The notes beneath the pieces are model-generated. The model was not told the DNA's origin. It saw only the letters and a program-made list of their open reading frames with translations, and searched no databases. A stretch of 64,000 nucleotides of DNA from Alphaproteobacteria bacterium (GTDB lineage Bacteria; Pseudomonadota; Alphaproteobacteria; SP197). Shown piece after piece: positions 23,815 through 42,974 of the stretch; the first letter of the stretch is position 1; each line of letters opens with the position of its first letter. The stretch spans positions 4,381,113 through 4,445,112 of the forward strand of contig OZ220705.1 of assembly GCA_965116515.1 (NCBI GenBank). The letters are read 5' to 3'. The translations under genes were made by a program, and so were the position numbers.

Positions 23815-26800
23815 TCACTCTGCCGCTTCCAGCGCTGCGCCTGCGCGACCGGAACGGCGCGCCTTGCGGGTCTGGCGCCAGGCGCCGACATTCTCGCGCA
23901 CCATCAGGGCACAGGGTGTGACAATGAGTGTCAGGATCGTGGCGAATGCCAGGCCGAACACGATGGCGCTCGCCAGCTGGACCCACCACTGGGTCGAGGG
24001 CGCTCCCACGCTGACCTCTCGGGTGACGAAATCGATGTTGACCTGCAGCACCATGGGCATGAGTCCGAGAATGGTCGTGATCATGGTGAGCAGCACCGGT
24101 CTCAGGCGCTGTGCCCCGGTCCGCAGAATGGCTTCGACGGGATCCCCGACCGTCCGGCGAAGCCTGTCAAAGGTGTCGATGAGAACGATGTTGTTGTTGA
24201 CCACGATGCCGGCGAGGGCAATGACGCCGATGCTCGACATGATCATGCCATAGGGCTTGCCGGTCACAAGGAGGCCGATCATGACCCCGACTGTCGACAT
24301 GATCACCGCGGAAAGGATGAGGAAAGCCGAATAGAAACTGTTGAACTGCGTGACGAGAATGATTGCCATCATGAAGAGAGCGACGATGAAGGCCTTGAGC
24401 AGGAACTCGGATGCCTCTTCCTGACGTTCATTGTCCCCCCGGAAATCAACTCCGACGCCGGGACCGAGTTCGACTGTGCCCAGCCATGCCTGCAGGTCAC
24501 GCACCAGGGAATCCGCCAGCACCCCTTCCTTGATATCAGCCGCGATGGTCATGACGCGTTCGCCGTCCACCCGCTGGATCCTGCCGACCCTTGGTCTGGC
24601 CGAGCGCTCCACAAAGTTCCTGATCGGCACGTGACCCAGAGGAGTCTGGATGCGGAGCTGGTCAAGCCCGTCAAGAGTGCGCATGCCTTCCGGGAACCGG
24701 ACCAGGACATCGATCTCTTCATTCGAATCATCGAGGCGCACCGTGGTGATGCGCAGCCCCCTGGTCACGAGCTGAATGATCGAGCCGACCGAGCCGATGT
24801 CCGCTCCGAACTTCGCCGCCTGGGTGCGATCGACAACGACCTCCCACTGAATTCCGGGAATCGGACGGCTGTCCTCGATTTCCTTCAGTCCATCCACCTC
24901 GTCGAGATGGTCGCGCAGGGTGGCAATCGCTTCTTCCAGCAGAACCGGATCGCTCGCGGACACCTGGATGTTGATCGGCTTCTCGGATCGCGGGCCCCGC
25001 CTCTGCCCACGTGATTCGACATGGATGCCGGCAAGGCTGGCGACTCTCTCGAGGACGTCCTCGAAAATGGACGACGCAGGACGTCTCAACGACCAGTCGA
25101 CGAGTTCCACGTTGACCGTTCCGATGGCGTCTTCGGCCCCCCGGGAATCCTCTCTTCCGCCTGAAGTCGCAAAGATCGTCTCGAACTCCTTCATGTCGAG
25201 CAAGCGGTCCTCGACTTCGCGAACCAGAACGTCCTTTTCCGCAGTGGAGAGGTTGCCCCTGGCATGAATCTGGAACGCTGCCCTTTCGGGTTCGATATCG
25301 GGAAAGAACTCGACACCCTTGCCATAGCGGGCGTAGGCGACCTGCACCCCGGCCAGCAACAGGACCGAGACAAGGAGAACCTTGACCGGGTGGCGCAGCA
25401 GGACGCGCAGGATCGCGAGATAAAGACCGGTAAAGCCACGCACACCATCGAGGCTGCTCCCCGAGTCCTCGGACAAGGCACGTGCCTGATCGCCGCCATG
25501 CCCGGTGCTCTTGCCAAACAACGATCCCAGGGTGGGCACGAAGATGAGCGCCATGGCAAGCGATGCGGAGAGAACAGCAATCAGGGTGATCGGCAGGTAC
25601 TTCATGAATTCGCCGACCATTCCCGTCCAGAACATGAGGGGAAAGAACGCCACGAGAGTTGTCAGGGTCGAAGCGGTGATCGGCCAGGCCATGCGGGAGG
25701 CGGCCGAAAAGTAGGCCTCGCGGCGACCGAGACCTTCGGACATCTTCCGGTCGGCATACTCGGTCACGACAATGGCGCCATCGACAAGCATGCCGACCGC
25801 GAGAATGAGGCTGAACAGCACGACGATGTTGAGAGTCAGGCCGGCGATCGCGAGAACCAGGATTCCGGTCAGGAACGATCCCGGTATGGCGACACCGACA
25901 AGCGCGGCCGATCGCCAGCCCAGACACCATACGATCACGATCATCACGAGAAGCACGGCTGTCAGCACATTGTTCTGCAGATCGGCCAGCATGAGCCGGA
26001 TGCCCTTCGACTGGTCCCTCGAGAAGGCGACCTTCACGCTCGACGGCCAGTCTGCGCTTGTTGCCGCCACGACAGCCCTCACCTTTTCGATGGTCTCGAT
26101 GATGTTCTCGCCGGTTCTCTTGGACACCTCGATGGTCAGCGCCGGCTCGCCCTTCACCCGTGCATGGACCCTGGCATCCTTGAATGTCCGCCTGACCTCT
26201 GCCAGCTCGCGGACACTGGTTGTCGCATCTCCCCTGATCTTGAGGGGCAGGCCCAGGAAGTCATCCACGTCGTCGATGAGCCCGGGGACCTTGATTGCGA
26301 ACTGTCCGGCGCCCGTATCCATCAGACCGACCGCCACCGGCCGGTTGGACCCACTGATGTCCCGCGCGATCTCGATGACATTGAGCCGGTAGCTCTCCAG
26401 GGTCACCGGGTCGACGATGACTTCGATCACCTCCTCGCGGTCCCCCTTGATGACGGCCTCAAGGACTTCACTCACCCCCTCGATGTTGTCCTTGAGTGTG
26501 CGGGCCAGACGCAACATGGTCCGTTCCGGCACGTTGCCCGAAAGGCTCACAACGAGTACGGGAAACAGCGACAGGTTGATCTCGTGCACGGTGGGATCGT
26601 CCGTGTCGTCAGGCAGGTCATGCCTGGCGATGTCGACCCTGGCCCGGACGTCCTCAAGGGCGGTATCGGGATCAAATCCCGCTTCGAATTCCAGAGTGAC
26701 GTTGGCGCCACCCTCAAACGCCGTCGACCTGACTTCCCTGACATTCTCGATACCGCGCAACTCCTGTTCCATGGGCTTGATCAGGAGACTGACCGCATCA

Positions 26801-26973
26801 TCCGGCGAAATTCCCTCGTGGTGCATCGACACGTAGATAATGGGGATATTGATGTCGGGATCGGACTCTTTCGGGATCGCGACGTAGACCGACACGCCGA
26901 CAACCAGGAGCAGTACGAGGGTGAGCAGGACCGTTCGGGGATGGTCGAGCGCGGTGTTGATAAGGGCGTTCAC
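23815..26973 (-). CDS. RND efflux transporter permease (AcrB/HAE family)
   Basis: 1052 aa, 12-TM architecture with two large periplasmic loops and a typical N-terminus ...HPRTVLLTLVLLLVVGVSVYVAIPKESDPDINIPIIYV. Confidence 0.95.
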   Translation of the reverse strand: MNALINTALDHPRTVLLTLVLLLVVGVSVYVAIPKESDPDINIPIIYVSMHHEGISPDDAVSLLIKPMEQELRGIENVREVRSTAFEGGANVTLEFEAGFDPDTALEDVRARVDIARHDLPDDTDDPTVHEINLSLFPVLVVSLSGNVPERTMLRLARTLKDNIEGVSEVLEAVIKGDREEVIEVIVDPVTLESYRLNVIEIARDISGSNRPVAVGLMDTGAGQFAIKVPGLIDDVDDFLGLPLKIRGDATTSVRELAEVRRTFKDARVHARVKGEPALTIEVSKRTGENIIETIEKVRAVVAATSADWPSSVKVAFSRDQSKGIRLMLADLQNNVLTAVLLVMIVIVWCLGWRSAALVGVAIPGSFLTGILVLAIAGLTLNIVVLFSLILAVGMLVDGAIVVTEYADRKMSEGLGRREAYFSAASRMAWPITASTLTTLVAFFPLMFWTGMVGEFMKYLPITLIAVLSASLAMALIFVPTLGSLFGKSTGHGGDQARALSEDSGSSLDGVRGFTGLYLAILRVLLRHPVKVLLVSVLLLAGVQVAYARYGKGVEFFPDIEPERAAFQIHARGNLSTAEKDVLVREVEDRLLDMKEFETIFATSGGREDSRGAEDAIGTVNVELVDWSLRRPASSIFEDVLERVASLAGIHVESRGQRRGPRSEKPINIQVSASDPVLLEEAIATLRDHLDEVDGLKEIEDSRPIPGIQWEVVVDRTQAAKFGADIGSVGSIIQLVTRGLRITTVRLDDSNEEIDVLVRFPEGMRTLDGLDQLRIQTPLGHVPIRNFVERSARPRVGRIQRVDGERVMTIAADIKEGVLADSLVRDLQAWLGTVELGPGVGVDFRGDNERQEEASEFLLKAFIVALFMMAIILVTQFNSFYSAFLILSAVIMSTVGVMIGLLVTGKPYGMIMSSIGVIALAGIVVNNNIVLIDTFDRLRRTVGDPVEAILRTGAQRLRPVLLTMITTILGLMPMVLQVNIDFVTREVSVGAPSTQWWVQLASAIVFGLAFATILTLIVTPCALMVRENVGAWRQTRKARRSGRAGAALEAAE

Positions 26974-28094
26974 AATGTCCCCGAGGAACCGTCGTCGTGG
27001 ACAGGCGTGACGGCTTCACCATCGGTGACGAATTCATGACCGACGGTAATGAGCGTCACCCGTTCAGGGAGCCCGGCGACGTGATATCCATCGGCTTCGG
27101 CAGAAATGATCGTCACCGGAAGAAAGCGGACCGTCGATTCCCCGTTGATGATCTTGACGCCCAGTGTGCCCGAGTCATCGAGAGACAGGATCGAGGGCGA
27201 AAGGAAGTGGCTGGGAACGGTCGCCAGCGGCAGCCTCACAAGTGTTGTCATTCCAGCCCTGATGGTGTGCTGCGGGTTGGGAATGTCCAGTTCGATCCTG
27301 TAGGTCCGGGTCTGTTCATCCGCAGTTCTGGCAATGTAGCGCACCACTCCGGCCACGGTCTCTCCCGTCGCCAGCGTCACCATGCCCCGGATCCCGGTCT
27401 CGATGCTCGCCACCCGGGTTTCGCTGACAAAGCTGACGACCGTGATCGGATCGAGATCCACGATCGTGCCGAGCGTGTCGGCTGCGCCGGTGAAGACGAC
27501 CGATCCTTCCTCGATGTCGAGTTCCTCGAGAACGCCCGATATCGGAGCCTTGATGCGTGTGCGTTCGATATCGAGACGGATGGCAGCGAGATCGGACCGC
27601 GCCCGATCGAGTTGGGCCAGCGCTTCGGCCTCTGCGGCTTCGGTCTGCCAACCGCTCTCTGCCAGCCTGGAAGCCGCCTCGTACTCGATTTCACGCAGAC
27701 GGACGCTTGACCGGGCCCTCTCCAGGCGCTCCATGCGATCGTCAGGGGCCAACCGGGCGATAAGGTCGCCAGCTTCAACGAAATCACCCTCCCGCACCTC
27801 AACCGCTTCGACACGGCCACGTGTCTGTGCGCTGAGCGCCACAATCCTCTCGGCAGCCGTCTGTCCCGTCAGGGTCAGTTCAAGCGCGTGGGGTATCGCA
27901 ACACTCGTCGCGACCCTGACGGAGGTGGCAGGCGGCGCCTCGATCACGGTTTCCGGCACCGGCTCTGCCCCGCCCTCCGACGCGGGCACATCGTCCCCGA
28001 GATTGCCGGACAGCACCCAAGCTGCAGCACCGATCGCGAAGACAACAGCGAGAATGTGGGAGAATTTCATGATGCCGGATTCATCACGGGCCAT
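26970..28094 (-). CDS. RND efflux periplasmic adaptor (MFP/HlyD_D23 family)
   Basis: LTGQTAAERIVALSAQTRGRVEAVEVREGDFVEAGDLIARL lipoyl-like hairpin, coiled-coil, beta-barrel. ATGA-type overlap with the pump gene. Alternative start ATG 28070 (MKFSHIL...). Confidence 0.9.
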   Translation of the reverse strand: MARDESGIMKFSHILAVVFAIGAAAWVLSGNLGDDVPASEGGAEPVPETVIEAPPATSVRVATSVAIPHALELTLTGQTAAERIVALSAQTRGRVEAVEVREGDFVEAGDLIARLAPDDRMERLERARSSVRLREIEYEAASRLAESGWQTEAAEAEALAQLDRARSDLAAIRLDIERTRIKAPISGVLEELDIEEGSVVFTGAADTLGTIVDLDPITVVSFVSETRVASIETGIRGMVTLATGETVAGVVRYIARTADEQTRTYRIELDIPNPQHTIRAGMTTLVRLPLATVPSHFLSPSILSLDDSGTLGVKIINGESTVRFLPVTIISAEADGYHVAGLPERVTLITVGHEFVTDGEAVTPVHDDGSSGTL

Positions 28095-28171
28095 GTGCCG
28101 GTGATGACTGTTCTCTGGAGTTTCACTATAGCGCAGAGCGACCGGGGATTGGAGTCATCCCGGCGGCCAGG

Positions 28172-28651
28172 TCATCGACGCTCGCCCCTGGCAAGTCCGA
28201 TATGGCGTGCGGCCCACACCGGCGACTCCTTCCATGCCAGCGCGGCAAGGCGTGAATCGATGTCCGGGGGGAAGGGTTTCGTTCGCCCCGCCTTGTGATC
28301 GAGATGGAGCCACATGCACTCGATGGTTCCGCACTGACGCTCACCGACACGAAAGACATGGCCGATGTGGAGGCGCTTGGCATCGTGTCCGATGACAAGG
28401 CTGTCGAAGGAAAGACATTCGCCCCTCGACACTTCGGCGAGATAGCGGACATGTGTTTCAACCGTAACCAGGGCGCATCCGGTCCTGTCGTAGTAGGCGG
28501 TGCCGATATCAAGGTGAGCCTGGAACGCCCATGAGGCGTCACTGGCCGCAACCACGAAGTATCCTTCGTTCATGTGGCCGTAGTGATCCGTCCATGAGTC
28601 GGGCACGTCCACCTGGTAGATGTCCGAAAACAGCGGATTGTCATCATTCAT
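28172..28651 (-). CDS. 4HBT/YbgC-like acyl-CoA thioesterase (hotdog fold)
   Basis: VPDSWTDHYGHMNEGYFVVAASDASW...LVTVETHVRYLAE. Start trimmed to ATG 28651 (MNDDNPLF...), preceded by AGGAGA. Confidence 0.75.
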   Translation of the reverse strand: MNDDNPLFSDIYQVDVPDSWTDHYGHMNEGYFVVAASDASWAFQAHLDIGTAYYDRTGCALVTVETHVRYLAEVSRGECLSFDSLVIGHDAKRLHIGHVFRVGERQCGTIECMWLHLDHKAGRTKPFPPDIDSRLAALAWKESPVWAARHIGLARGERR

Positions 28652-28715
28652 CTCAACTCTCCTGACCATCCGTCCGGGTCCTGCCGGCAGCCCGGATCGA
28701 TGCCGTTGTTGCAGA

Positions 28716-29474
28716 TCAGGGGTCCACCGCGTACGGATCGGGAGTCCAGCCCAGCGCCTCGAGACGTTCGATCGCCTCCGCGTGACGGAGAGCTTCGGCG
28801 GCATCCCTGCTGTCCATGCCGATGCCCCTGACCAGAAGGTTGCGGGCGTGTTCGCTCCCGTCGTCCAGGACCAGCAACCCTGTGGCACACTCCAGCATGA
28901 TGGTCTTGCTGTCGGGTCGGAGTTCCAGGGCCCGTTCGAAATGTTCCAACGCCGCGTCCTCGCTGGCATCGTAGAGCATTCCGGCCACAAAGGAGCCCAG
29001 GGCGTCGATCACACCCGCATGCCAGCGCCCCATGGCAAGGTGGGCCTCGGCCATCTCCGGGTCAAGGGCCAGGGCCTTTTCGGCGGCCTCGCGAATTCTC
29101 GTACCGTAATCCCGGTTCGATGCCTCGAAGGAACCGACCGCCTCCGCGTGCCGGCCGATGGCGGTGGCGAGTTGCACATGGGCTTCGGCGTTCTTCGGAT
29201 CGGCACGGACGGCCTCGGTTGCAAGATTGATGGCCTGCCCGAGGTACCGGTCCACCTCGTCTGTCCCGGCAATGAAGTGGCCATGGACCTGCAGGGACCT
29301 CGCCGCCAGCATGAAACCGGCAGCTGTTCCGAGACCCTCGGCAATCCCGGCGGCCTCGATGAATCTCCCCTCGGCATAGGCAGTCCGCGCAAGGTCGAGG
29401 GACCCGGCCTCGGCATCGAACGGAAGACTGAAGGCCAGCCCGAGAATCCATGCTAGGACGAGGCGTCCCCACAT
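28716..29474 (-). CDS. Secreted helical-repeat (TPR/Sel1-like) protein
   Basis: Signal-peptide-like MWGRLVLAWILGLAFSLPFDAEA, then Ala-rich helical repeats (AYAEGRFIEAA..., DPKNAEAHVQLATAIG..., ALALDPEMAEAHLAMG...). Start could also be 29519. Confidence 0.55.
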   Translation of the reverse strand: MWGRLVLAWILGLAFSLPFDAEAGSLDLARTAYAEGRFIEAAGIAEGLGTAAGFMLAARSLQVHGHFIAGTDEVDRYLGQAINLATEAVRADPKNAEAHVQLATAIGRHAEAVGSFEASNRDYGTRIREAAEKALALDPEMAEAHLAMGRWHAGVIDALGSFVAGMLYDASEDAALEHFERALELRPDSKTIMLECATGLLVLDDGSEHARNLLVRGIGMDSRDAAEALRHAEAIERLEALGWTPDPYAVDP

Positions 29475-29677
29475 CCGGCGCGGAACCGTTTCAGTAATGC
29501 AACCCTTCTCCTGATCCATGACCTTCGGGATTCCACATCGACACGTTGACAGCATAACGCCGCCTTCCTTCCATCGATTTCGCGGATCACAGGACCAACC
29601 TCCCGCGCAAGATACCCCGGTCCCCAAGGCCGGCATGACCCTCAAGAGAACTATACACCAGTAGCCATGTCGAGAGA

Positions 29678-29700
29678 GAAACCGGATGAAACCCGGTTTC
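29678..29700 (-). terminator. Intrinsic-terminator-like hairpin after the mttB-family operon
   Basis: On the minus strand: GAAACCGG-gtttcat-CCGGTTTC followed by TCTCTC. About 160 nt downstream of the HMT gene stop. Confidence 0.45.
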
Positions 29701-29859: not shown

Positions 29860-30816
29860 TCAGGACAGATGCGTCGGCAGTGCGTCGCGCAGCGGACGGA
29901 TATGCTCGATCTCGATGCCGCAGCAACCTCCCACCACCTGCACACCGGCCTCGACACAGTCCCTGGCCCATGCCGTGAATTCCTCCGGCGTGACCGGTGT
30001 CGGCCTTCCCCGGTCGCGGTAGGTGTCGACATAGTCCATGCGCTCGGCTTCGGGATAGACGCAGATCGGTCCCTGCCACCTGGCGCGCACGACGTCGAGC
30101 GCCGCGTCGGTCGCACTGATCAGCGAATGGAAGAGGCAGACCACATCGCCACCGAGCGCCATGACTTCGTCGAAGCCATCGGCGATGGTCTCGGGCGAAG
30201 AATAGCCGAGCCGGGGCATCGACTCGTGCTCGTCCTGCCTGACCTTGAAGCCGGGCCACACCGGCAAGCCGGTCGCGAGACACGCCTCGACAACCCATTT
30301 GCGATGAATGTTGCCCCCGGTCGATTCGGCGATCAGGAAATCGACCCCGGCCTCGGCCAGTATGTCGGCCTGCTGGCGGAGATTCGCCCGTGCCTGGGCC
30401 TCGGAGGTCTCGCTCCGCCGCTCCTCGTAGTCTCCCTCGCAGGCGACCCGAAGACCGAAGTTCGAGACGGAACCGGCAATCAGCGGCGGACGGTCTCCCG
30501 CCGTCCTGTCACGGGCGTCCTGTGCCAGCATGACGGCGCGCAGGTTGAGTTCGACGACCTTGTCGCCGAGACCGAGGGGCTCGAGGTTGTGGCGGGCAGA
30601 CGAATAGGTGTTGGTGGTGATGATGTCGACACCGGCCGCGACGTACTCCTCGTGCATGCGGCGCACGGTGAAGGGGTGGCTCTCCAGCGCCGCCGCCGCC
30701 CACGCCAGTCCGGACATGGGCACGCCCATGCTCTGGAGCCGGGTGCCGATGGCGCCATCGAGCAGGATGACCTCGCGCCGCGCCAGGCGCCGTTCAAGAT
30801 TTGCATATGCGCTCAC
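29860..30816 (-). CDS. Homocysteine S-methyltransferase-domain protein (Pfam S-methyl_trans-like, stand-alone)
   Basis: VILLDGAIGTRLQ...DIITTNTY...DFLIAEST...VVGGCCGIEIEHIRPL (Zn-binding CC motif). Start set to GTG 30816 (GGGGAGGG upstream), since there is no ATG near the domain start. Confidence 0.8.
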   Translation of the reverse strand: MSAYANLERRLARREVILLDGAIGTRLQSMGVPMSGLAWAAAALESHPFTVRRMHEEYVAAGVDIITTNTYSSARHNLEPLGLGDKVVELNLRAVMLAQDARDRTAGDRPPLIAGSVSNFGLRVACEGDYEERRSETSEAQARANLRQQADILAEAGVDFLIAESTGGNIHRKWVVEACLATGLPVWPGFKVRQDEHESMPRLGYSSPETIADGFDEVMALGGDVVCLFHSLISATDAALDVVRARWQGPICVYPEAERMDYVDTYRDRGRPTPVTPEEFTAWARDCVEAGVQVVGGCCGIEIEHIRPLRDALPTHLS

Positions 30817-30904
30817 GCTGCCCTCCCCAGGCCGAATTCGAGGCTCGAACCATACATCACCGAAACTTCCTGCAGAAAGTGGCGCCGCGGACGATCGCCC
30901 TGGT

Positions 30905-31945
30905 TCACTCCCGGTCGTCTCCATCCATCGGCCACGTGTCGGCAATCCGGTAGCCGGCCGGAAAGGGATCGTCGGACTCGAGGACGTAGTCGCACGCGGC
31001 GGTGATCCATGCCCGGCCGCTCATGGCGGTCACCACGGCCTCGTAGGGTCCGACCCTGACGAGCTCAGTGATTTCCGAGGAGAAGGCAGAGTCGATCAGG
31101 GAGCGGTGCAGGAACGGCTCGCCAACGGAAATCCGCCCGCGTGCATGCAGCACGGCGAGCCGGGCCGATGTTCCCGTACCACACGGACAACGGTCGATTC
31201 GACCGGGCGAAACGACCACCGCATTCCTGGAGTGGAGGCCGCCTTGCGCACGCACGGCCGGAGACCGGAAGAGGGTCTGCGTTATGCCTGCGATCTCCGG
31301 ATTCTCCGGATGGCTGACCGGAATCTGCTCGGCCGCAGCCCGCTTGACCGCCTGACCCACTTCGCAGAGTGTCCGCCCCTCGGACGGCACCAGTTCGAAA
31401 CCAAAGTGAGCCGCATCCACCAACACATAGGTCATGCCACCGAAGGCCACGTCGACCGGCAATGGTGCCAGGCCCGGAACCTCGATCACACGATCGAGGC
31501 AATAGACGAAGGCGGGCCGGTTGACGAGCCGGACCGCGCCGATCCTGCCATTGGCCGTGTCGCATTCGATTCCAATCAGGCCGGCCGGCGCTTCGAGGGT
31601 GAATCGTGTGACCGGTTCCGTAATGGGAACCATGCCGGTCTTCAACAGCACCGTGGCCACGCTCATCGTGTTTCCGCCGGACATGACCGGATACTCCTCG
31701 CTCTCCGCGATGATGAAGCCGGCAACGGCTTGCGGGTGCTCCGAGGCAACGATGAAATTGACGCTCCTGACGACACTGCCACGCGGCTCGTTCAGAAAAA
31801 ACCTGCGGATATCGTCATGGTGCCGACGCAGGTACGTCATCTTCTGGAACACCGGTCCGGCCGGCAGTTCAGGCAGACCGGACGTGACGACCGTCTCGAC
31901 ATCGCCCTCGCAATGACAATCGTAAGCGGTGAAGCGCGCCTTCAT
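30905..31945 (-). CDS. Proline racemase / hydroxyproline epimerase-dehydratase superfamily protein
   Basis: MKARFTAYDCHCEGDVETVV..., ...EYPVMSGGNTMSVA..., ...SPGRIDRCPCGTGTSARLA... The first catalytic position reads Ser and the second Cys. Confidence 0.85.
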   Translation of the reverse strand: MKARFTAYDCHCEGDVETVVTSGLPELPAGPVFQKMTYLRRHHDDIRRFFLNEPRGSVVRSVNFIVASEHPQAVAGFIIAESEEYPVMSGGNTMSVATVLLKTGMVPITEPVTRFTLEAPAGLIGIECDTANGRIGAVRLVNRPAFVYCLDRVIEVPGLAPLPVDVAFGGMTYVLVDAAHFGFELVPSEGRTLCEVGQAVKRAAAEQIPVSHPENPEIAGITQTLFRSPAVRAQGGLHSRNAVVVSPGRIDRCPCGTGTSARLAVLHARGRISVGEPFLHRSLIDSAFSSEITELVRVGPYEAVVTAMSGRAWITAACDYVLESDDPFPAGYRIADTWPMDGDDRE

Positions 31946-32030
31946 GCGGACTCGCCGGTCAAGCTGGCCCGGCATCGTGCTGATCACGCCGTTCGACACA
32001 TGTCAGGTTCGGGGCGGCGGGCAGCCCCGA

Positions 32031-33575
32031 CTACCTCACATCGTCAGGCAGCTCCCGCTCGCGGCGGGTGACGAAATCACGCAATTCCTCGTCTACGGCC
32101 TCGTCCAGCGGGGGCGGCACGTACGTTTCGAGCATCTGCCGCACGCGGGCGGCGGCGCGCCGGTCTGCATCCAGGCCGCCTTCCGCCTCCCATTGCTCGA
32201 AGCTGTCGTGGTTCATCAGCTCGGGCATCATGAAAGCCCGCTCGAAGTTGTCGAGCGTGTGTTTCGTGCCAAGGAAATGTCCGCCGGCCTCGACCTCGCC
32301 GATCGCCTCGAGGGCGTCGTCGAGTTCGCCGAAGTCAACGCCCTGGCCAAGCCTGTAGAACATCTCCATCTGTTCGGCGTCGAGCACGAACTTCGCATAG
32401 CTCTGGGTCAGCGCACCCTCCATGTAGCCCGTCGTCGAAAGAACGAAGTTTGCGCCGGCCATCATCACGCCGTACATGTTGCGCGCCGCCTCGTAGCCGG
32501 CCTGGGCATCAACGATCTTGGCGCTCGAGCAGCCGCCGCTGCACCGCCAGGGCAGACGATAATGGCGGGCCATCTGGCCGACCAGCATGTTCATGTGGCA
32601 GATCTCAGGCGTTCCCGCCATGGGAGCGCCGGACTTCATGGAAACCGTCGCCAGCCACTGGCCGTAGACGGCGGGCGCGCCGCGCCGGACCAATTGCGAG
32701 AAGGCGATTCCTGCCAAGGCCTCGGCGTTGATCTGGACCAGCGAACCGACAGTGCTCGCCGGCGTGCTGGCGCCGCCCAGCACGAAGGGAGTATAGAGCA
32801 TGGCCTGGTTGGCGGACGCATAGACCTTGGCCGCATCGAGCATGGTCTGGTCCCACACCAGCGGCGAGTTGCAGTTGGCGATGGACGTCATGACGGTATT
32901 GTTCTCGACGAATTCGCTACCAAACAGGATCTTCGCCATGGCGACGGTGTCTTCGGCCCGCTCGCGGGCTGTCACCATGCCCATGAAGGGCTTGTCCGAG
33001 TGCCTGATGAGGCTGTAGACCATGTGGAGATGGCGCTTCGGGACGGGCACGTCCATCGGCTCGCACAACACGCCGCCGGAAAGGTGCATGGCCGGCGACA
33101 TGTGAGCCAGTTTCGCGAAGGCGTCGAAATCGGCGAGGGTGCCGTAACGGCGCCGGCCGTCGAGATCGAGAACGTTGGGCGAGCCGTAAGCCGGCGTGAA
33201 AATCTGCTTCAACCCACCCAGTGTGACCGAGCGCGCCCGATTGCGGGCAACCATGGTGTAGCTCTCGGGCACCGTGGCGATCAGTTCCAGCAACTGGCCC
33301 CGGTCGATGCGCACCCTGTAGCCCTCGACCAGCGCTCCGGCGGCCTTCCACAGGGCCACGCTTTCATCGTCCCGGAACTCGATCCCCTTGTTCTCGAGCA
33401 GCGTCATAGTCGCATCGTGGATGTGCTTGACCTGGTCCGGCGACATGAGGTCGATCACTGGAATCCTGCGGTCGAGTTCGGGCAGGAAGCGGACCGGCCG
33501 CTCGGTGCGGGCCTGCTTGCGCGCGTCCCGTCCGCGGCGCCTGCGCGGTTTGTCGACAGCGTCGATGACGGTCAT
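32031..33575 (-). CDS. MttB-superfamily methyltransferase, non-pyrrolysine type (quaternary-amine:corrinoid methyltransferase-like)
   Basis: 514 aa, uninterrupted (no in-frame UAG). Family-typical N-terminus RRRRGRDARK...IHDATMTLLENKGIEF and a TIM-barrel-length body ...NSPLVWD...GGASTPAS... Confidence 0.88.
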   Translation of the reverse strand: MTVIDAVDKPRRRRGRDARKQARTERPVRFLPELDRRIPVIDLMSPDQVKHIHDATMTLLENKGIEFRDDESVALWKAAGALVEGYRVRIDRGQLLELIATVPESYTMVARNRARSVTLGGLKQIFTPAYGSPNVLDLDGRRRYGTLADFDAFAKLAHMSPAMHLSGGVLCEPMDVPVPKRHLHMVYSLIRHSDKPFMGMVTARERAEDTVAMAKILFGSEFVENNTVMTSIANCNSPLVWDQTMLDAAKVYASANQAMLYTPFVLGGASTPASTVGSLVQINAEALAGIAFSQLVRRGAPAVYGQWLATVSMKSGAPMAGTPEICHMNMLVGQMARHYRLPWRCSGGCSSAKIVDAQAGYEAARNMYGVMMAGANFVLSTTGYMEGALTQSYAKFVLDAEQMEMFYRLGQGVDFGELDDALEAIGEVEAGGHFLGTKHTLDNFERAFMMPELMNHDSFEQWEAEGGLDADRRAAARVRQMLETYVPPPLDEAVDEELRDFVTRRERELPDDVR

Positions 33576-33759
33576 CGGCGGAACTCCCTGCGTGAGGCCA
33601 GATTACCTGCTTTCGGCCGGTTGGTCATACAATCGCCTCTCGTCGCCGAACCGGCAGTGAGCATTACTCGTTGACGTCGATTCCGGTTGCCGAATAGGCT
33701 TCCTGGTGCATTGTTGCACAGTCGTGACGATGCCGTTCCGGTGTCGAGGGAGGCAAGAG

Positions 33760-34746
33760 ATGATCAAGAAAGCTGTTTGGATAGCGGCGGGCATGCTTCT
33801 GGCTGTCCAGCTGACGCCGAATACGGTGGCCGCGGATTCAGTCAAGCCGATTTATCAGGGTGTCTCGGAGGAGCTCTTCCAGACCTACATTGTCGGCATG
33901 GGCCTGGAAGAACTCGGCTACGAGGTCGATGAGCCAACGGTCGCCCAGATGCAGGCTAGTTTCGTGGCTGTGGTGAACGGCGACGCCTCGTTCTATCCGG
34001 CGTTCTGGTGGCCGCTTCACAAGACGTTCTGGGAACAGCAGGGTGGCGATGCTGTCTGGCAGCGGGTCGGAACCCTGGTCGAGAATTCACTGCAGGGATA
34101 CCTCATCGACAAGGCGACCGCGGAGGCCCAGGGAATCACGACGCTCGACCAGCTGCAGGATCCGGAACTCGCGAAGCTGTTCGATATCGACGGCAACGGC
34201 AAGGCCGACCTCTATGGCTGCGAGACGGGTTGGGGTTGCGAGCGTGTCATCGAGCACCAACTCGATGCCTACGAGTTGCGCGACACGGTGGAGCACCGTC
34301 AAGGCGGCTATTTTGCCATCATTCCCGATGCCGTGGAACGTATCAGGAGCGGTCAGCCCACGCTCTACTACACCTGGACCCCGCTCTGGCTCAGCGGCGT
34401 TCTGCGTCCCGGACACGAGGTGGTGTGGCTCAACGTCCCCTTCACGTCCCTGCCCGATGGCCGGACCGAAGAGGACAGTACGACCGTGGAGGGCATCGGC
34501 AATCTGGGGTTTGCCGTCAACACGCAGCATGTCATCGCGAACACGGCGTGGCTCGAAGCCAATCCGGTCGCAGGGAAATGGTTCGAGCTGCTGCAGGTCC
34601 CCATCGACGCCATCAATGCCCAGAACATGCTCGTGAACGAGGGCGAGAAGTCGGACGAGCAGATACACCAGCACGCCCGCGACTGGATCGAAGCGAACCA
34701 GGCGCAATGGGACAGCTGGATCGCTGAGGCGCAGGCCGCGCAGTAG
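33760..34746 (+). CDS. proX: Glycine betaine/proline betaine-type ABC substrate-binding protein
   Basis: Signal peptide MIKKAVWIAAGMLLAVQL. The ProX-like body has Trp-rich motifs (FYPAFWWPLH, GCETGWGCE, YYTWTPLW). GGAGG lies before ATG 33760. Confidence 0.85.
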   Translation: MIKKAVWIAAGMLLAVQLTPNTVAADSVKPIYQGVSEELFQTYIVGMGLEELGYEVDEPTVAQMQASFVAVVNGDASFYPAFWWPLHKTFWEQQGGDAVWQRVGTLVENSLQGYLIDKATAEAQGITTLDQLQDPELAKLFDIDGNGKADLYGCETGWGCERVIEHQLDAYELRDTVEHRQGGYFAIIPDAVERIRSGQPTLYYTWTPLWLSGVLRPGHEVVWLNVPFTSLPDGRTEEDSTTVEGIGNLGFAVNTQHVIANTAWLEANPVAGKWFELLQVPIDAINAQNMLVNEGEKSDEQIHQHARDWIEANQAQWDSWIAEAQAAQ

Positions 34747-34831
34747 CGCGCCTGCTCTTTCTGTACGGCCTGGATACAGCGGGTGCATGGTTCGCCATGC
34801 ACCCGTTTTGATTCGATCGCTCGGAGACGGC

Positions 34832-35905
34832 ATGCCGAACGCCACCATTGAATGCCGCGGCGTCTGGAAAATCTTCGGCGACCGCGAGAAGGAGGCGCTG
34901 GCCGCGGTCAGGTCGCGCGGAATCGGAAAGAGCCAGGTTCTGGACGAATTCGGATGCGTCGTCGGCGTGCGGGATGTCAGCTTCGACGTCGCCGAGGGCG
35001 AGATCTTCTGCATCATGGGCCTCTCGGGCTCCGGCAAGTCCACGCTTATCCGTCATGTGAACCGGCTCATCGATCCCAGTGCGGGCGAAATTCTGGTCGA
35101 GGGTGTCGCGGTCAACACGCTTGCGCCGGAGGCCCTGCGCGAGCTCCGGTCGAGGAAGATCGGAATGGTGTTTCAGAACATGGCTCTTCTGCCCCACCGG
35201 ACGGTGCTGGACAATGTCGCGCTCGGTCTCGAGTTGCGCGGCGTCGACAGGACCGAGCGCAACGCAACCGCCGTGAACACACTTGAGCGGGTCGAACTCG
35301 CCGGTTGGGGCGACCGTTATCCCGACGAGCTTTCGGGCGGCATGAAGCAGCGTGTCGGCCTGGCCCGGGCGCTGGCGGCCGATCCGCACATTCTCCTGAT
35401 GGACGAGCCCTTCTCGGCGCTCGATCCTCTGATTCGCCGGGAACTCCAGGGCGAGTTCATGACGCTGGCTTCCCAGATGAACAAGACCACCCTGTTCATC
35501 ACCCACGACCTCGATGAAGCGATCCGGATCGGTCACCGCATCGCCGTCATGAAGGACGGGGCACTGGTGCAGATCGGCACTCCCGAAGATATCGTTACCA
35601 ACCCGAAGGACGACTATGTGGCGGATTTCGTTGCCGGGATTTCCAGACTCAACCTGGTGACGGCGCAAAAAATCATGGAACCGCCCGAGGCTTTTGTCAC
35701 GCAGCACGGTGCGATCGACGAGAAGGTCTGCCCTCGGGCCTCGCCGGACGACAGCCTGGACCGCCTGACCGACCTTGCAGTCGGAAGCCCGCATCCCATT
35801 CTCGTCATCGCGGACGGCAGGACCGTCGGTATCGTGACCGGCCGGACCCTGCTTCGAGGTATTCAAGGCAACCGGTCGGGAGACGGATCCCAGGCAACGA
35901 CCTGA
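34832..35905 (+). CDS. proV: Betaine-type ABC transporter ATP-binding protein with C-terminal CBS pair
   Basis: GLSGSGKST, LSGGMKQRVGLARA, LLMDEPFSALD, then a CBS-like tail (AQKIMEPPEAFV...PILVIADGRTVGIVT). Confidence 0.9.
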   Translation: MPNATIECRGVWKIFGDREKEALAAVRSRGIGKSQVLDEFGCVVGVRDVSFDVAEGEIFCIMGLSGSGKSTLIRHVNRLIDPSAGEILVEGVAVNTLAPEALRELRSRKIGMVFQNMALLPHRTVLDNVALGLELRGVDRTERNATAVNTLERVELAGWGDRYPDELSGGMKQRVGLARALAADPHILLMDEPFSALDPLIRRELQGEFMTLASQMNKTTLFITHDLDEAIRIGHRIAVMKDGALVQIGTPEDIVTNPKDDYVADFVAGISRLNLVTAQKIMEPPEAFVTQHGAIDEKVCPRASPDDSLDRLTDLAVGSPHPILVIADGRTVGIVTGRTLLRGIQGNRSGDGSQATT

Positions 35906-35927
35906 GAGGGTCAGGGAGTGACGGCTC

Positions 35928-36863
35928 ATGGATGAATGCGGCCTGCTGAACGTCTTCGAATGCGGCACGATTCCGATTGAGATCTGGGTCTCGGACGGCC
36001 TGCGTTGGCTGGTCGCCAACTACCGTCCCTTCTTCCAGGCCCTGAAATGGCCCGTGGAGCTGGTGCTGCGCAACTTCGAATGGGCACTTGGCAGCGTGCC
36101 GCCGACGCTCATGCTGGCCGTCTTCGCCTTGGCGGCCTGGCAGATCGCGGGAGTCAGGCTGATGCTCGGCGTCGCCGGATCGCTGCTCTTTATCGGTTTC
36201 CTCGGGGTCTGGCCGGAGACCATGACGACACTTTCGGTCGTCTTCACATCCCTGGTCCTGTGCCTCGTCATCGGCTTGCCGTTGGGTATCTGGGCTGCCA
36301 GGAGCAACCGCTTCTATGCTCTCGCGCGGCCCGTTCTTGACGGAATGCAGACCATTCCGGCCTTCGTCTACCTGGTGCCGATCGTCATGTTGTTCGGCAT
36401 CGGCAATGTTCCTGGCGTCATCGTCACCATCGTCTTCGCGCTGCCTCCCGTCATCCGCCTGACCAATCTCGGAATCCGGCAGGTGCCGAACGACGTGATC
36501 GAAGCCATGCTGGCCTTCGGCGCGTCCGAACGCCAGTTGTTGTGGAAGGCGCAGCTGCCACTCGCCATGCCCTCCATCATGGCGGGCATCAACCAGACAC
36601 TCATGATGTCGCTGTCGATGGTTGTCATCGCCTCCATGATCGCGGTGGGAGGGCTCGGCCAGATGGTGCTTCGCGGAATTGGACGGCTGGACATGGGAAT
36701 TGCGACCGTCGGAGGGCTCGGCATCGTGATGCTGGCCATCGTGCTGGACCGGCTGACACAGTCCATCGCGCAGAGCAGCCAGCGCCGAAGGGGAGCATCG
36801 TGGAAGGAACGCGGTCCCGCCGGCCTCTTCCTGAAATGGATGCGGAAATCCGGAACACGTTGA
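35928..36863 (+). CDS. proW: Betaine-type ABC transporter permease
   Basis: Multi-TM protein with the binding-protein-dependent permease loop (EAMLAFGASERQLLWKAQLPLAMPSIMAGINQ). Confidence 0.9.
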   Translation: MDECGLLNVFECGTIPIEIWVSDGLRWLVANYRPFFQALKWPVELVLRNFEWALGSVPPTLMLAVFALAAWQIAGVRLMLGVAGSLLFIGFLGVWPETMTTLSVVFTSLVLCLVIGLPLGIWAARSNRFYALARPVLDGMQTIPAFVYLVPIVMLFGIGNVPGVIVTIVFALPPVIRLTNLGIRQVPNDVIEAMLAFGASERQLLWKAQLPLAMPSIMAGINQTLMMSLSMVVIASMIAVGGLGQMVLRGIGRLDMGIATVGGLGIVMLAIVLDRLTQSIAQSSQRRRGASWKERGPAGLFLKWMRKSGTR

Positions 36864-37123: not shown

Positions 37124-37381
37124 ATGGGTCTGAACATAAGGAACAAAGAGACCTGCAGGCTGGCGCGCGAGGTGGCCCGATTGACCGGCGATACCATGAC
37201 CGGTGCGATTACCGCCGCGTTGCGCGAGCGTCTGGAGCGGGAGCGGCAACGCCGACATGAGAGTGCCCTGGCTCAGGAACTTCACGCGATAGGACAGCGC
37301 TGTGCAGGTCTTCTGAAACCCGCACCGTCCGCGGTCGAACATGGCAACCTGCTCTGTGACGAGCGAGGCCTGCCCAAGTGA
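37124..37381 (+). CDS. vapB: Type II antitoxin, VapB (Rv0623/PSK-like) family
   Basis: MGLNIRNKETCRLAREVARLTGDTMTGAITAALRERLERER... is the characteristic N-terminus of this antitoxin family. The stop overlaps a GTG by 4 nt (GTGA), as in vapBC operons. Confidence 0.7.
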   Translation: MGLNIRNKETCRLAREVARLTGDTMTGAITAALRERLERERQRRHESALAQELHAIGQRCAGLLKPAPSAVEHGNLLCDERGLPK

Positions 37382-37587: not shown

Positions 37588-38694
37588 GTGAAGATCTCCG
37601 AACTGCACGTCCACCGGATCGACCTGCGGATCCGGACCGGACCCTACGTCATGTCGGGCGCCAGCCTCGAAGCGGTGGACTCCACCGTCGTCGAACTCGT
37701 CACGGATGCGGGCCTCAAGGCCTACGGCGAGACCTGCCCCGTCGGCCCGACCTATCAGCCCGAGCACGCGCTCGGCGCCCGGGCCGCGCTTGCCGAAATG
37801 GCCCCTCACCTGATCGGCGAGGATCCGCTGAACGCCAACGCCCTTCACCGGAACATGAACGAACACCTCAACGGTCACAACTACGCGAAGGCCGTGGTCG
37901 ACATGGCGCACTGGGATCTCATGGGAAAGGTTCACGGCGCGAGAGTCTGCGATCTTCTCGGCGGCGCGGTCTTCGAGGAGGTTCCGTCATACTATGCCAT
38001 CAGCGTTGGCGAACCTGACGAGGTCGCCCGCCTTGCCCTGGAAAAGAGCAGGCAGGGTTTCCCCCGCCTGCAGCTCAAGGTGGGCGGACGCACCGTCGAC
38101 GCCGACATCGCAACGATCCGCAAGGTCTGGGAGACCGTCGGGAGGACGGTCAGGCTCGTCGCCGATGCCAACCGGTCCTGGACGACCCGTGACGCCCTGC
38201 ATCTGTCGAAGGCCTGTGCCGATATCCCGGTTGTCCTCGAACAGCCCTGCAACACCATGGCGGAAATTGCCCGCATCCGTCCGCAACTCGAACACCCCGT
38301 CTACCTCGACGAGAGCACGGAAAGCCTCGCCGATGTCCTGAACGCCGTCGGTTCCGGCCTCTGTGACGGTTTCGGACTCAAGGTCGGACGGCTCGGCGGC
38401 CTCAGTCACCTGCGCACGGCTCGCGATGTCTGCAGGGTGTGGTCCCTTCCCCATACCTGCGACGACAGCTTCGGCGGCGACATTACAGCAGCCGCCTGCG
38501 TTCATGCCGGAGCGACGGTGGAGGCGCATCTCAACGAGGGTGTGTGGATCTCCGAGCCCTATACCGGCGTTCACTACGATCCCGAAGGCGGCATCGAGGT
38601 TTCGAACGGCCGGATCTCCCTGCCCAGAGGACCGGGCCTGGGGGTTACGCCATCACCGGAGCGACTCGGTCCTCCTGTCGCGTCCTACGGTTGA
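37588..38694 (+). CDS. Enolase-superfamily enzyme, MR/MLE subgroup (possible betaine/hydroxyproline-betaine epimerase-like)
   Basis: Capping domain VDSTVVELVTDAGLKAYGE. Barrel with LQLKVGG, metal ligands in VADANRSW / VLEQP / YLDES, second Lys in GFGLKVGRLGG. GTG start. Confidence 0.85.
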   Translation: MKISELHVHRIDLRIRTGPYVMSGASLEAVDSTVVELVTDAGLKAYGETCPVGPTYQPEHALGARAALAEMAPHLIGEDPLNANALHRNMNEHLNGHNYAKAVVDMAHWDLMGKVHGARVCDLLGGAVFEEVPSYYAISVGEPDEVARLALEKSRQGFPRLQLKVGGRTVDADIATIRKVWETVGRTVRLVADANRSWTTRDALHLSKACADIPVVLEQPCNTMAEIARIRPQLEHPVYLDESTESLADVLNAVGSGLCDGFGLKVGRLGGLSHLRTARDVCRVWSLPHTCDDSFGGDITAAACVHAGATVEAHLNEGVWISEPYTGVHYDPEGGIEVSNGRISLPRGPGLGVTPSPERLGPPVASYG

Positions 38695-41792: not shown

Positions 41793-42974
41793 TCACTGCG
41801 CGGCCGGCACCGGTAATGCGACGCGGTCCGGCGCCAGTGTACGGGCGAGGTACTTGTAGAACTGGGCGACAGTGCCCTCGCGCACGTTGAGAGGACCGGG
41901 CTCGGCCCTGGATGAGCGCATCACAGCCTGCAGGCGCCATGTCGCCTGCGCGTCTTCTTCGTTGACCCGGTAGATCAGTTCGTTGCGCTGTTGGACTCCT
42001 TGAGGATCCTCATCACACGACCAGGGCGCGACGATGTACCCCCCCATGACGCGTGTCCGCTCCGGACCCAGCGGAAGGAACGACAACCAGTTGTTGCTGT
42101 CGGTCGTCATGGCAAGTGAGATATTGGGAAAGAGACCGATCGCATAAACCGTGGATAACTCCTGTTCCGTGAAGCCACGGCCCTGGGGCAGAAGGCGCGA
42201 GAAGCCTCCATCGGCGGGGTCGGACGCGTCCGAGAAAGGACAGCGGGTGTGGGTGAATCGCCCGCTCTTCGGTGCGGAATCGACGGTGGCACCCTTCGCC
42301 GGTACGGATGCCTCCAGCGTCTCTGCATGAAGCCCCATGTGATGGTAGAACTCCATGCCGTTCTCGGTGGCGAGCTTCCAGTTGCCCTCCCACACCGCGT
42401 CATAGGTGAAGCCGGTCAGAAGGTCACCGGTCCTGTAGTTGGCGAGCATGGCGTCGGCTTCATGAAGCTGCGGCGCCAGCGGTGGTGCGTCATCGTCAAG
42501 GTTGATGAAGATGAAGCCCTGCCAGACTTCAAGCCTGATTTCGGGAAGACGGCATTTATCTTTTTCGAATCCGAGCGAGCCCTCCATCAAAGGCGCCGTC
42601 ACGAGTCTTCCGTCGGTGCCGTAGACCCAGCCATGATAGGGACAGACGAACCGCTTGACATTGCCGCGCTCAGCGAGCGCGACCGGCATGTAGCGGTGGC
42701 GGCAGATGTTCGAGAACCCGCGGATCACGCCGTCGGTGCCGTGAACCACGAGAATGGGTTCGTCGAGAATTCGGGCCGTGAACCAGTCGCCCCGCTCCGC
42801 CATGTCGTTGGCGCGGCCGATCAGAAGCCATTCATGCTTGAAGATCGTCTCGACCTCAAGAGCGTAGAGATCGGGATCGGTATAGGCATCCGGCGGCAAT
42901 GTCCTGCAGGCCGCATCTTCGGTAGCCGGATAGGCGGCCAGTGTGTCGAGGAGCCGATCGAGGGTGGCCGTCAC
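41793..42974 (-). CDS. Rieske [2Fe-2S] non-heme-iron oxygenase, alpha-subunit type (GbcA/Stc2/HpbB-like)
   Basis: CRHRYMP...CPYHGWVY Rieske motif and a catalytic domain with HMGLH. Start set to GTG 42974 (GGAG upstream) because the extension to 43055 has low GC3 and an R/S/H-rich sequence. Confidence 0.85.
   Translation of the reverse strand: MTATLDRLLDTLAAYPATEDAACRTLPPDAYTDPDLYALEVETIFKHEWLLIGRANDMAERGDWFTARILDEPILVVHGTDGVIRGFSNICRHRYMPVALAERGNVKRFVCPYHGWVYGTDGRLVTAPLMEGSLGFEKDKCRLPEIRLEVWQGFIFINLDDDAPPLAPQLHEADAMLANYRTGDLLTGFTYDAVWEGNWKLATENGMEFYHHMGLHAETLEASVPAKGATVDSAPKSGRFTHTRCPFSDASDPADGGFSRLLPQGRGFTEQELSTVYAIGLFPNISLAMTTDSNNWLSFLPLGPERTRVMGGYIVAPWSCDEDPQGVQQRNELIYRVNEEDAQATWRLQAVMRSSRAEPGPLNVREGTVAQFYKYLARTLAPDRVALPVPAAQ

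Follow-up and report, generated by a model that had tools for sequence, protein, structure and literature searches.

An MttB-family methyltransferase in a candidate hydroxyproline betaine/proline betaine gene island of an alphaproteobacterium, and its recent juxtaposition with a homocysteine S-methyltransferase-fold gene

Introduction

In the aerobic bacterium Ruegeria pomeroyi, a split system, MtgBCDE, links the demethylation of glycine betaine to methionine synthesis (Mausz et al., PNAS 2025; PMC12478193). The system consists of MtgB (pfam06253), MtgC (cobalamin), MtgD (pterin) and MtgE (homocysteine module), with members named from R. pomeroyi, Phaeobacter inhibens and Sinorhizobium meliloti; in the latter species the open reading frames (ORFs) are colocalised, and bhmt has been named mtgE (PMC12478193). 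The genes of R. pomeroyi for the substrate-specific MtgB proteins, for the shared MtgC and for the bidirectional MtgD do not lie together, and as many as seven pfam06253 paralogues occur per genome (PMC12478193). MtgB genes may be unlinked from the corrinoid gene, and paralogues have been proposed to act on other methylated substrates. Several MttB/MtgB paralogues are found in aerobic bacteria of sea and soil, and the 2025 work left their roles open (PMC12478193). Here we describe a pfam06253 gene, mttB, in a 64-kb stretch of alphaproteobacterial DNA (contig OZ220705.1, positions 4,381,113 to 4,445,112; hereafter the window, in which all coordinates are counted from its first letter). The gene is followed by those for a proline racemase family protein (ProRac) and for a stand-alone protein with the homocysteine S-methyltransferase fold (SMT). 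The source organism is probably sponge-associated.

Several members of the MttB superfamily come from anaerobes, where MtpB (the proline betaine:corrinoid methyltransferase of Eubacterium limosum), MtgB, MtcB, MtyB and MthB are accompanied by a cognate corrinoid protein, an MT2 and RamA. All characterised enzymes of the superfamily methylate the Co(I) of a corrinoid (PMC13080624, PMC12478193), and the same quaternary amine to Co(I) chemistry is proposed for the MttB homologue of the window. A separate body of work concerns HpbD, the 4R-hydroxyproline betaine 2-epimerase/proline betaine racemase (PMC3950512), in the pathway of which the published demethylases are the Rieske proteins HpbB/C and the flavoprotein HpbA. 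The conversion of cis-4-hydroxy-D-proline to 2-oxoglutarate is catalysed by an established triad of DAAO-, DHDPS- and aldehyde-dehydrogenase-family enzymes (PMC4113996).

Results and discussion

A candidate island for (hydroxy)proline betaine catabolism

Pfam and NCBIfam scans of the window outlined an island of ~30 kb (29.8-59.8 kb), with the MttB, ProRac and SMT genes at its left edge. We consider it reasonably probable that this island serves the catabolism of hydroxyproline betaine or proline betaine and of hydroxyproline, and that the MttB homologue is the first demethylase, working with a corrinoid protein from elsewhere. The principal genes are as follows.

29860-30816, minus strand: SMT, homocysteine S-methyltransferase fold, 318 aa (PF02574, E 4e-45)
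30905-31999, minus strand, likely start at 31975: ProRac, proline racemase family (PF05544, E 5e-109)
32031-33575, minus strand: mttB, MttB homologue, 514 aa (full-length match to PF06253 (MTTB), E 7e-201)
33706-36863, plus strand: proX-proV-proW, betaine/proline ABC importer, divergent from mttB (NCBIfam)
37588-38694, plus strand: orthologue of HpbD, 4R-hydroxyproline betaine 2-epimerase/proline betaine racemase of the enolase superfamily (sequence match)
54451-59775, plus strand: DHDPS-like protein, aldehyde dehydrogenase (Aldedh), DAO-family FAD oxidase and two short-chain dehydrogenases/reductases (SDRs) (Pfam)

In the scheme that we propose, the betaine would be imported by ProXVW, and HpbD would interconvert trans-4-hydroxyproline betaine and cis-4-hydroxy-D-proline betaine (or L- and D-proline betaine). 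The first N-methyl group would then be removed by the MttB homologue and passed to the Co(I) of an MtgC-type corrinoid protein, the gene for which would lie elsewhere in the genome and which methionine synthesis and tetrahydrofolate (THF) loading would also use, as in the MtgBCDE system of Ruegeria and Sinorhizobium. 4-Hydroxyproline would be epimerised by the Ser/Cys ProRac, after which the DAO-family oxidase, the DHDPS-family deaminase and the aldehyde dehydrogenase would convert cis-4-hydroxy-D-proline to 2-oxoglutarate. The substrate, the remote corrinoid partner and the direction of methyl flow are the parts of this scheme that we infer.

The importer genes pass the NCBIfam cut-offs, namely, those of the equivalogs for ProX (400 > 215) and ProW (440 > 439) and that of the subfamily for ProV (359 > 327). 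The HpbD orthologue matches HpbD of P. denitrificans (4e8g/4izg/4j1o) with an E value of 3e-147 and that of P. bermudensis (2pmq/4h2h) with an E value of 6e-120, is 60% identical to rsHpbD (RSP_4007), and retains the catalytic Lys pair and the metal ligands (K164, D194, E219, D242, K266, D293). The DHDPS/Aldedh/DAO triad at 54451-58247 is assigned at the family level, the equivalog cut-offs not being reached. Thus, the window shares with the HpbD pathway an HpbD orthologue, a ProX-type importer and the enzyme families of the cis-4-hydroxyproline oxidase, deaminase and 2-oxoglutarate-semialdehyde dehydrogenase, in an arrangement that resembles the surroundings of rsHpbD. It differs in that an MttB-family protein, here as in Cereibacter sphaeroides, is the candidate demethylase within the cluster, the published pathway using Rieske proteins and a flavoprotein, and in that two SDRs are conserved additions to the gene set. 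An HpbA-like large flavoprotein did not turn up among the Pfam-scanned ORFs of the window, a scan that did not include the ORFs at 1426-5291.

ProRac probably starts with the ATG at 31975, which yields a protein of 356 aa, as called in relatives. Its catalytic dyad consists of the Ser in MSGGN and the Cys in DRCPCGTG; in an alignment to 4K7G (Ser/Thr), the Ser is kept and the Thr is replaced by Cys. 4-Hydroxyproline 2-epimerases have Cys/Cys or Ser/Cys dyads, whereas trans-3-hydroxyproline dehydratases have Ser/Thr or Cys/Thr (Zhao et al., 2014 eLife; PMC4113996). Although the closest solved structure is that of a trans-3-hydroxyproline dehydratase (Ser/Thr) and the best NCBIfam model, at a score below its cut-off (367 < 550), is also a dehydratase, ProRac is predicted from its dyad to be a 4-hydroxyproline 2-epimerase.

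A preliminary description of this locus, drawn up by a model from the letters alone, had recognised much of the above. The 514-aa mttB-family gene without an in-frame stop, the proline-racemase-family gene, the 318-aa SMT gene and the divergent proX-proV-proW genes were all borne out by the searches, as was the suggestion that the racemase-family gene belongs to the same metabolism as mttB. That MttB is a non-pyrrolysine enzyme, that a betaine importer is encoded beside it and that the alphaproteobacterial context is of an aerobic type likewise holds.

The MttB homologue carries a distinct clade signature

The MttB homologue covers positions 1-500 of the 500 of PF06253, and its ORF is uninterrupted, with no in-frame UAG. 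Its score against the equivalog of the pyrrolysine-containing trimethylamine methyltransferase MttB is below the cut-off (289 < 525). The protein scores 523 bits against 4yyc from S. meliloti (50% identity) and 381 bits against MtgB (2qne/9yce; 41% identity); for MtpB, MtcB, MtyB and MthB there are no solved structures. We mapped the sequence on the MtgB structure with bound glycine betaine, in which the substrate is bound by Y97, R312, H348 and F356 (Picking 2026; PMC13080624), and obtained the clade signature Y130/R344/S380/Y384/A388. Y130 and R344, which correspond to the cation-pi Tyr (Y97) and the carboxylate-binding Arg (R312) of MtgB, respectively, are invariant in the 120 best hits. 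By contrast, His348 of MtgB is replaced by Ser380 (120/120 best hits) and Phe356 by Ala388 (118/120), and Ile352 corresponds to Tyr384 in the window protein.

MttB homologues that adjoin genes for MtgC, MtgD, DUF1638 and MetF2 carry H-W-A-G at the corresponding positions, and 4yyc of S. meliloti carries H-W-G-G, as opposed to S/Y/A here. Judged by these residues, the enzyme of the window represents a distinct specificity clade and is not a glycine betaine MtgB. Together with its neighbourhood, it is predicted to be a (hydroxy)proline betaine:corrinoid methyltransferase.

Two MttB clades are embedded in HpbD gene sets

To place the window among its relatives, we refer by L-numbers to loci obtained in a genome scan, a metagenome scan and tblastn surveys with the window proteins. 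A megablast comparison of the region with plasmids gave matches at the ProV level only. Members of the MttB clade (63-96% identity) are encoded directly beside the DHDPS-Aldedh-DAO-SDR-SDR genes in L001, L002, L094-L105 and L139. In L094-L105, which came from the metagenome scan and tblastn, the MttB gene (64-83% identity) directly adjoins the five genes on contigs with G+C contents of 45-70%, and in L139 a LysR gene is followed by a compact six-gene operon of MttB and the same five genes, close to which lies an MR_MLE gene. HpbD is linked to the clade in L002, L009 and L139, and ProXVW lies beside it in L044, L089, L138, L140, L144 and L145. On plasmid pM0123d of Mesorhizobium amorphae, an MttB gene (68% identity; orthologue A6B35_RS31600 of strain CCNWGS0123) follows proW-proX-proV. 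Its surroundings encode a DHDPS-like protein, a DAO, an aldehyde dehydrogenase, two SDRs, an MR_MLE protein and a ProRac orthologue that is 66% identical and has the identical Ser/Cys dyad. This cluster also carries an M24/creatinase-like protein of the Xaa-Pro peptidase family.

A second case is provided by C. sphaeroides 2.4.1, in which a member of a different MttB clade (48% identity; T-R-H-W-A-G) is encoded immediately upstream of the characterised rsHpbD (RSP_4007). On the C. sphaeroides plasmid NZ_CP015291.1 (L141 11917-16150; record 53637-57870), rsHpbD is followed by SDR-SDR, and DAO-Aldedh-DHDPS-GntR and proVWX lie alongside. The 2014 mBio study of the rsHpbD locus ascribed demethylation to unlinked Rieske proteins and did not mention a methyltransferase. 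Given that the MttB clades of the window-type loci and of C. sphaeroides are distinct, MttB-family genes have entered HpbD clusters on at least two occasions. The most economical reading of these gene sets is that both clades remove the first methyl group of hydroxyproline betaine or proline betaine.

We found no literature that links MttB or pfam06253 to hydroxyproline or its betaine, and the systematic association of MttB-family genes with the HpbD/hydroxyproline gene set appears to be undescribed in the searchable literature. The embedding of one large and one smaller paralogue clade in this gene set provides a concrete candidate substrate assignment in genetically tractable organisms. If the assignment is true, a cobalamin-dependent alternative to the Rieske demethylases exists in a well-studied pathway, and the cobalamin demand of osmolyte turnover, including that in sponge symbionts, is wider.

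The corrinoid partner is probably encoded outside the window

All six-frame ORFs of at least 50 aa in the window were searched with phmmer, the queries being three domains of E. coli MetH (cobalamin, pterin and activation) together with the MtgC, MtgD, DUF1638, RamA-like ferredoxin and MetF2 proteins of S. meliloti. No cobalamin-binding, pterin-binding, DUF1638 or RamA-type protein was found in the 64 kb, the sole match being SMT, through its homocysteine domain. The absence of a B12-binding protein that had been noted for the immediate cluster thus extends to the entire window. Identical searches recovered all query proteins beside other MttB homologues (L106-L110, L115, L128, L130), so that the negative result for the window is meaningful. 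Neither cobalamin- nor pterin-binding proteins were found within 10 kb of MttB at ~22 loci of the window's clade, and a corrinoid protein was not found within 10 kb of SMT at any of the 79 loci of the SMT subfamily (see below).

Because all characterised members of the superfamily methylate Co(I) and the mtg genes of R. pomeroyi are dispersed, we propose that the corrinoid partner of the MttB homologue is an MtgC-type protein with its gene outside the window. Across Alphaproteobacteria, MtgC sequences share 77-92% identity, and MtgC was not found on the M. amorphae or C. sphaeroides plasmids examined.

The window is not an instance of MtgBCDE as defined, even though the two have much in common: a non-pyrrolysine pfam06253 enzyme, a stand-alone protein of the S-methyl_trans fold, an aerobic alphaproteobacterial host and a betaine importer nearby. 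In S. meliloti L142, bmt, MttB, a cobalamin-binding protein, DUF1638, MetF2 and a methyl-THF:cobalamin methyltransferase are clustered, and none of MtgC, MtgD, DUF1638, RamA/ferredoxin and MetF2, all found in that cluster, is present in the window. In addition, the window MttB has S/Y/A in place of the glycine-betaine-type H/W/G, and SMT, which is 29% identical to Bmt/MtgE, lacks the first zinc Cys and is not of the MtgE type. Compared with the MtpB-like enzymes of anaerobes, the window MttB keeps the carboxylate-binding Arg of the MtgB R312 type; the cognate corrinoid protein, MT2 and RamA of those systems set them apart. The record of L142 (CP090106.1) is labelled pSymB, yet it is 3.72 Mb long and hence chromosome-sized, so the replicon label is probably wrong.

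MttB, ProRac and SMT were juxtaposed recently

The genes for MttB, ProRac and SMT lie on one strand, with ~55 nt between MttB and ProRac and 88 nt between ProRac and SMT, and the preliminary description had read them as an operon. Consensus scans for promoters and terminators yielded nothing that exceeds the expectation from shuffled sequence, and co-transcription is neither favoured nor disfavoured by them. Comparison with relatives does not uphold the operon as a conserved unit. The arrangements are as follows, with identities to the window proteins.

L089, L144 (99% identity to the window): the three genes contiguous as in the window
L044, L145 (SMT 91-93%, MttB 96% in L044): MttB-ProRac, then ~4.3 kb, then SMT
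L009 (MttB 96%): 5.7 kb from MttB to SMT, without ProRac
L001 (MttB 93%): MttB adjoins a thioesterase gene; without SMT and without ProRac
L002 (MttB 83%): HpbD and hydroxyproline genes present; without SMT
L004-L007, L011 (SMT 83-92%): metZ followed directly by SMT; without MttB

Within the genus, contiguity is thus limited to the 99%-identical lineage of the window, L089 and L144. The ~4.3-kb insert of L044 and L145 comprises two to three genes on the same strand and an SBP_bac_5 gene on the opposite strand. In the window, the gene that accompanies SMT in other relatives is found at the far border of the island:

59829-61205, minus strand: metZ, O-succinylhomoserine sulfhydrylase, which makes homocysteine (TIGR01325, 576 > 510)

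The other border is formed by a thioesterase/RND-pump block at 23815-28990. Genes for a reverse transcriptase of the group II intron type, for IS66 transposases and for DruA-domain proteins occupy the slot between metZ and the thioesterase gene in different relatives, which is consistent with a recombination hot spot; such mobile-type genes were seen at L004 8299-9786, L005 16224-17459, L007 4423-7217 and L002 1-2173. The varied arrangements among relatives indicate that the slot is hypervariable, with SMT as its resident gene, and the contiguity of the three genes in the window is a recent, species-level event. SMT would stand beside ProRac-MttB only because the island was inserted into the slot and ~4.3 kb were subsequently deleted. 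In this genus, SMT is probably the methionine-forming partner of metZ and not a specific acceptor for MttB.

The wider survey points in the same direction. It covered 79 genome loci with SMT-subfamily homologues of 34-92% identity, nearly all of them in metagenome-assembled genomes (MAGs) and many from sponge-associated lineages. An MttB gene is located within 10 kb of SMT only in L009 and L044, which are from the same genus, and in one distant case. Reciprocally, SMT was not found at the loci, among the ~22 of the window's MttB clade, that lie outside this genus. As the MttB-SMT linkage is not conserved, the dedicated betaine-to-methionine pair that the preliminary description had put forward is not supported; an adjacency found in one lineage had been mistaken for a conserved functional pairing. 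For the direct, corrinoid-independent transfer that was also considered there, we obtained no evidence. Finally, the view that such a route had not been described is out of date, since the underlying concept, an aerobic MttB combined with a stand-alone homocysteine module and a remote corrinoid carrier, is essentially that of MtgBCDE, published in 2025 (PMC12478193).

SMT belongs to an uncharacterised subfamily

The GTG start of the 318-aa SMT is backed by ~120 homologues, which measure 317-326 aa and align with it from end to end (100%), and the protein covers positions 2-283 of the 283 of PF02574. It shares with MmuM, BHMT and the homocysteine domain of MetH the TIM-barrel fold, the LDGAxGT motif and the GGCCG zinc motif. 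However, it scores below all the equivalog cut-offs, namely, MmuM (126 < 215), Bmt (PRK07534; 98 < 338), MetH (65 < 1011) and YitJ (128 < 453), and is only ~29% identical to E. coli MmuM and to S. meliloti Bmt (MtgE). In Foldseek comparisons (TMq 0.70-0.79), an AF2 model (pLDDT 91.9) is no closer to one than to another of BHMT, MmuM and the homocysteine domain of MetH. By these measures, SMT represents an uncharacterised subfamily that is neither MmuM nor Bmt/MtgE.

The zinc motif GGCC is kept in SMT (C298, C299). The first zinc Cys (in GINC, GLNC or GANC) is absent throughout the subfamily, down to 35% identity, and is replaced by a (F/M/I)-H-(S/T) motif, in which the invariant H230 is located at the C-terminal end of the strand 226-232. 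The subfamily may therefore hold a His-Cys-Cys site, with the binding of zinc by the His being putative. Members are found in MAGs of Alpha- and Gammaproteobacteria, Chloroflexota, Rokubacteria, Poribacteria and Acidobacteriota, and the subfamily has a wide distribution among MAGs of sponge-associated, marine or soil origin.

The position of SMT next to metZ in relatives points to an enzyme that forms methionine. A single dominant conserved neighbour was sought as a further clue to function, but the contexts are heterogeneous, including SBP_bac_5 ABC systems, M24/creatinase-like, glutamine-synthetase (GS)-like, DAO and MFS proteins, and no function could be derived from them. Of the 79 loci, 17 have SBP_bac_5 ABC systems and 7 have M24/creatinase-like proteins, the commonest neighbours. 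The latter are encoded at position +1 relative to SMT in L029, L031, L032 and L040, and one is encoded within the island of the window (43981-45420, minus strand). Two distant genomes, one of them labelled Dehalococcoidia, encode an SMT homologue (65-66% identity) followed by a Ser/Cys ProRac (46% identity), without MttB (L008 10001-12061 and L019 10001-12050).

Alternative explanations

Several observations weigh against the proposed island function. The substrate of the MttB clade is read from its gene neighbours only, and genetic work in P. denitrificans assigns the first demethylation step of the breakdown of proline betaine to the Rieske proteins HpbB/C (PMC3950512). The window itself encodes two candidates for such an activity:

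41793-43055, minus strand: Rieske/ring-hydroxylating alpha subunit, best match GbcA (158 vs cut-off 670)
61336-62577, minus strand: Rieske/ring-hydroxylating alpha subunit, best match GbcA (199 vs cut-off 670)

At distances of 8 and 28 kb, these GbcA-like subunits may act as oxidative demethylases of betaines and could carry out the first demethylation; a reductase partner was not noticed. The lack of a corrinoid gene near the ~22 loci of the MttB clade is equally expected of a corrinoid-independent enzyme. Furthermore, the canonical hydroxyproline betaine pathway has no place for the two SDRs, and the actual substrate may therefore be another, related N-methylated compound. Lastly, the recurrence of the ProRac-SMT pairing in L008 and L019 hints at some functional tie between the two families.

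The alternatives mostly concern SMT and its relation to MttB. SMT could be an ordinary S-methylmethionine (SMM)/S-adenosylmethionine (SAM):homocysteine methyltransferase, active in MmuM-like salvage and unrelated to the island, which is compatible with the role proposed for MttB. We regard this as possible, if doubtful: MmuM is the best match among both NCBIfam models (126 bits) and PDB entries (5dml, E 4e-22), SMT is stand-alone at 318 aa like MmuM, and in relatives it lies beside metZ and often near importers, but the score remains below the cut-off at only 29% identity, the subfamily has a conserved His in place of the first zinc Cys, and no MmuP-type permease is nearby. It is unlikely, in our view, that the adjacent SMT serves as this lineage's homocysteine module, analogous to MtgE, for the corrinoid from elsewhere that MttB would load, so that betaine methyl groups flow to methionine, with contiguity selected for co-expression. 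The three genes are indeed co-directional with short gaps and without a predicted terminator between them, the homocysteine-binding fold of SMT is as near to the MetH domain as to BHMT or MmuM, its partnership with metZ in relatives makes it probably methionine-forming, and MtgBCDE offers a precedent. Nevertheless, the linkage is not conserved: this MttB is near only 2 of the 79 SMT loci, both in the same genus and even there with an opposite-strand gene between, close relatives have either gene without the other, and none of the 79 loci offers a corrinoid protein nearby. Moreover, SMT is not of the MtgE/Bmt type (98 < 338 bits; 29% identity), and the published model, in which any MtgB can feed MtgE through the shared MtgC, makes a dedicated pairing unnecessary.

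A bolder version combines two claims, namely, that the His-Cys-Cys SMT subfamily is a new methionine-forming kind of enzyme fed, in this lineage, by methyl groups of hydroxyproline or proline betaines (from an MttB-loaded corrinoid or directly from an N-methylated proline intermediate, without canonical MetH/MtgE), and that the missing cobalamin-dependent (hydroxy)proline betaine demethylase of aerobes is to be found in the S380/Y384/A388 MttB clade. We deem this combination quite unlikely. Even less probable is that SMT is a BHMT-like direct demethylase that transfers a methyl group from an N-methylated proline derivative, a betaine or a sulfonium compound to homocysteine without a corrinoid, in parallel to or downstream of MttB (for instance, from N-methyl-hydroxyproline). 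The Ser/Cys ProRac immediately downstream of SMT homologues in L008 and L019 would fit such an activity; the neighbouring DAO oxidases (L012, L013), creatinase/M24-like proteins and SBP_bac_5 importers suggest small N-methylated amino-acid-like substrates, and many aromatic residues are invariant, among them W39, the equivalent of a Trp conserved in MmuM and Bmt. Yet the neighbourhoods are heterogeneous and lack a dominant partner, the gene simply follows metZ in the closest relatives, and proline-type betaines have no biochemical precedent as donors in the BHMT family. Finally, MttB and SMT might form a corrinoid-independent complex that passes the betaine methyl straight to zinc-activated homocysteine, an idea that the lack of corrinoid genes around the clade loci and in the whole window would accommodate but that we find hardly credible: all characterised MttB-superfamily enzymes methylate Co(I) (PMC13080624, PMC12478193), dispersed corrinoid genes are normal in aerobes, and most loci of the clade are without SMT, so that such a complex cannot be the mechanism of the clade.

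Other features of the window

Two non-coding features flank the genes discussed above.

33576-33705, strand not applicable: divergent intergenic region between mttB and proX, with presumed promoters/operator (sequence)
29668-29697, minus strand: hairpin GGAAACCGG...CCGGUUUCU, weak terminator candidate (RNA fold)

A sigma-70 consensus scan of the mttB/proX intergenic region gave no match. The terminator-like hairpin of the preliminary description does exist, ~165-195 nt 3' of the SMT stop codon; its designation as a terminator fares less well, given that it lacks a clean U-tract and was not called by the terminator consensus scan, and the folding z-score of the spacer is -0.5. A TPR-like ORF at 28716-29645 was considered as a part of the system and rejected: its TPR matches are weak, and it is missing or much shorter in several close relatives.

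Besides the genes listed above, the island encodes solute-binding proteins, the M24/creatinase-like protein, and ABC and TRAP transporters. Outside the island, the region 8567-15940 contains genes for a GntR regulator, a soxB-like FAD oxidase and glutamine-synthetase-like, class-II amidotransferase and glutamate-synthase-like proteins. Taken together, they resemble the N-methylglutamate pathway for methylamine use, with the pathway genes at 10819-15940. As a speculation, the DAO/DHDPS pair of the island might release methylamine from an N-methyl intermediate, to be used by the products of these genes.

Between proW and hpbD, a small ORF (37124-37381, plus strand) encodes an Rv0623-like (PSK_trans_fac) antitoxin-type protein, a homologue of which is found in the same place in L009. 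A 420-aa ORF at 51215-52477 (minus strand) encodes a TRAP small subunit (DctQ) that is apparently fused to an N-terminal TM2 domain.

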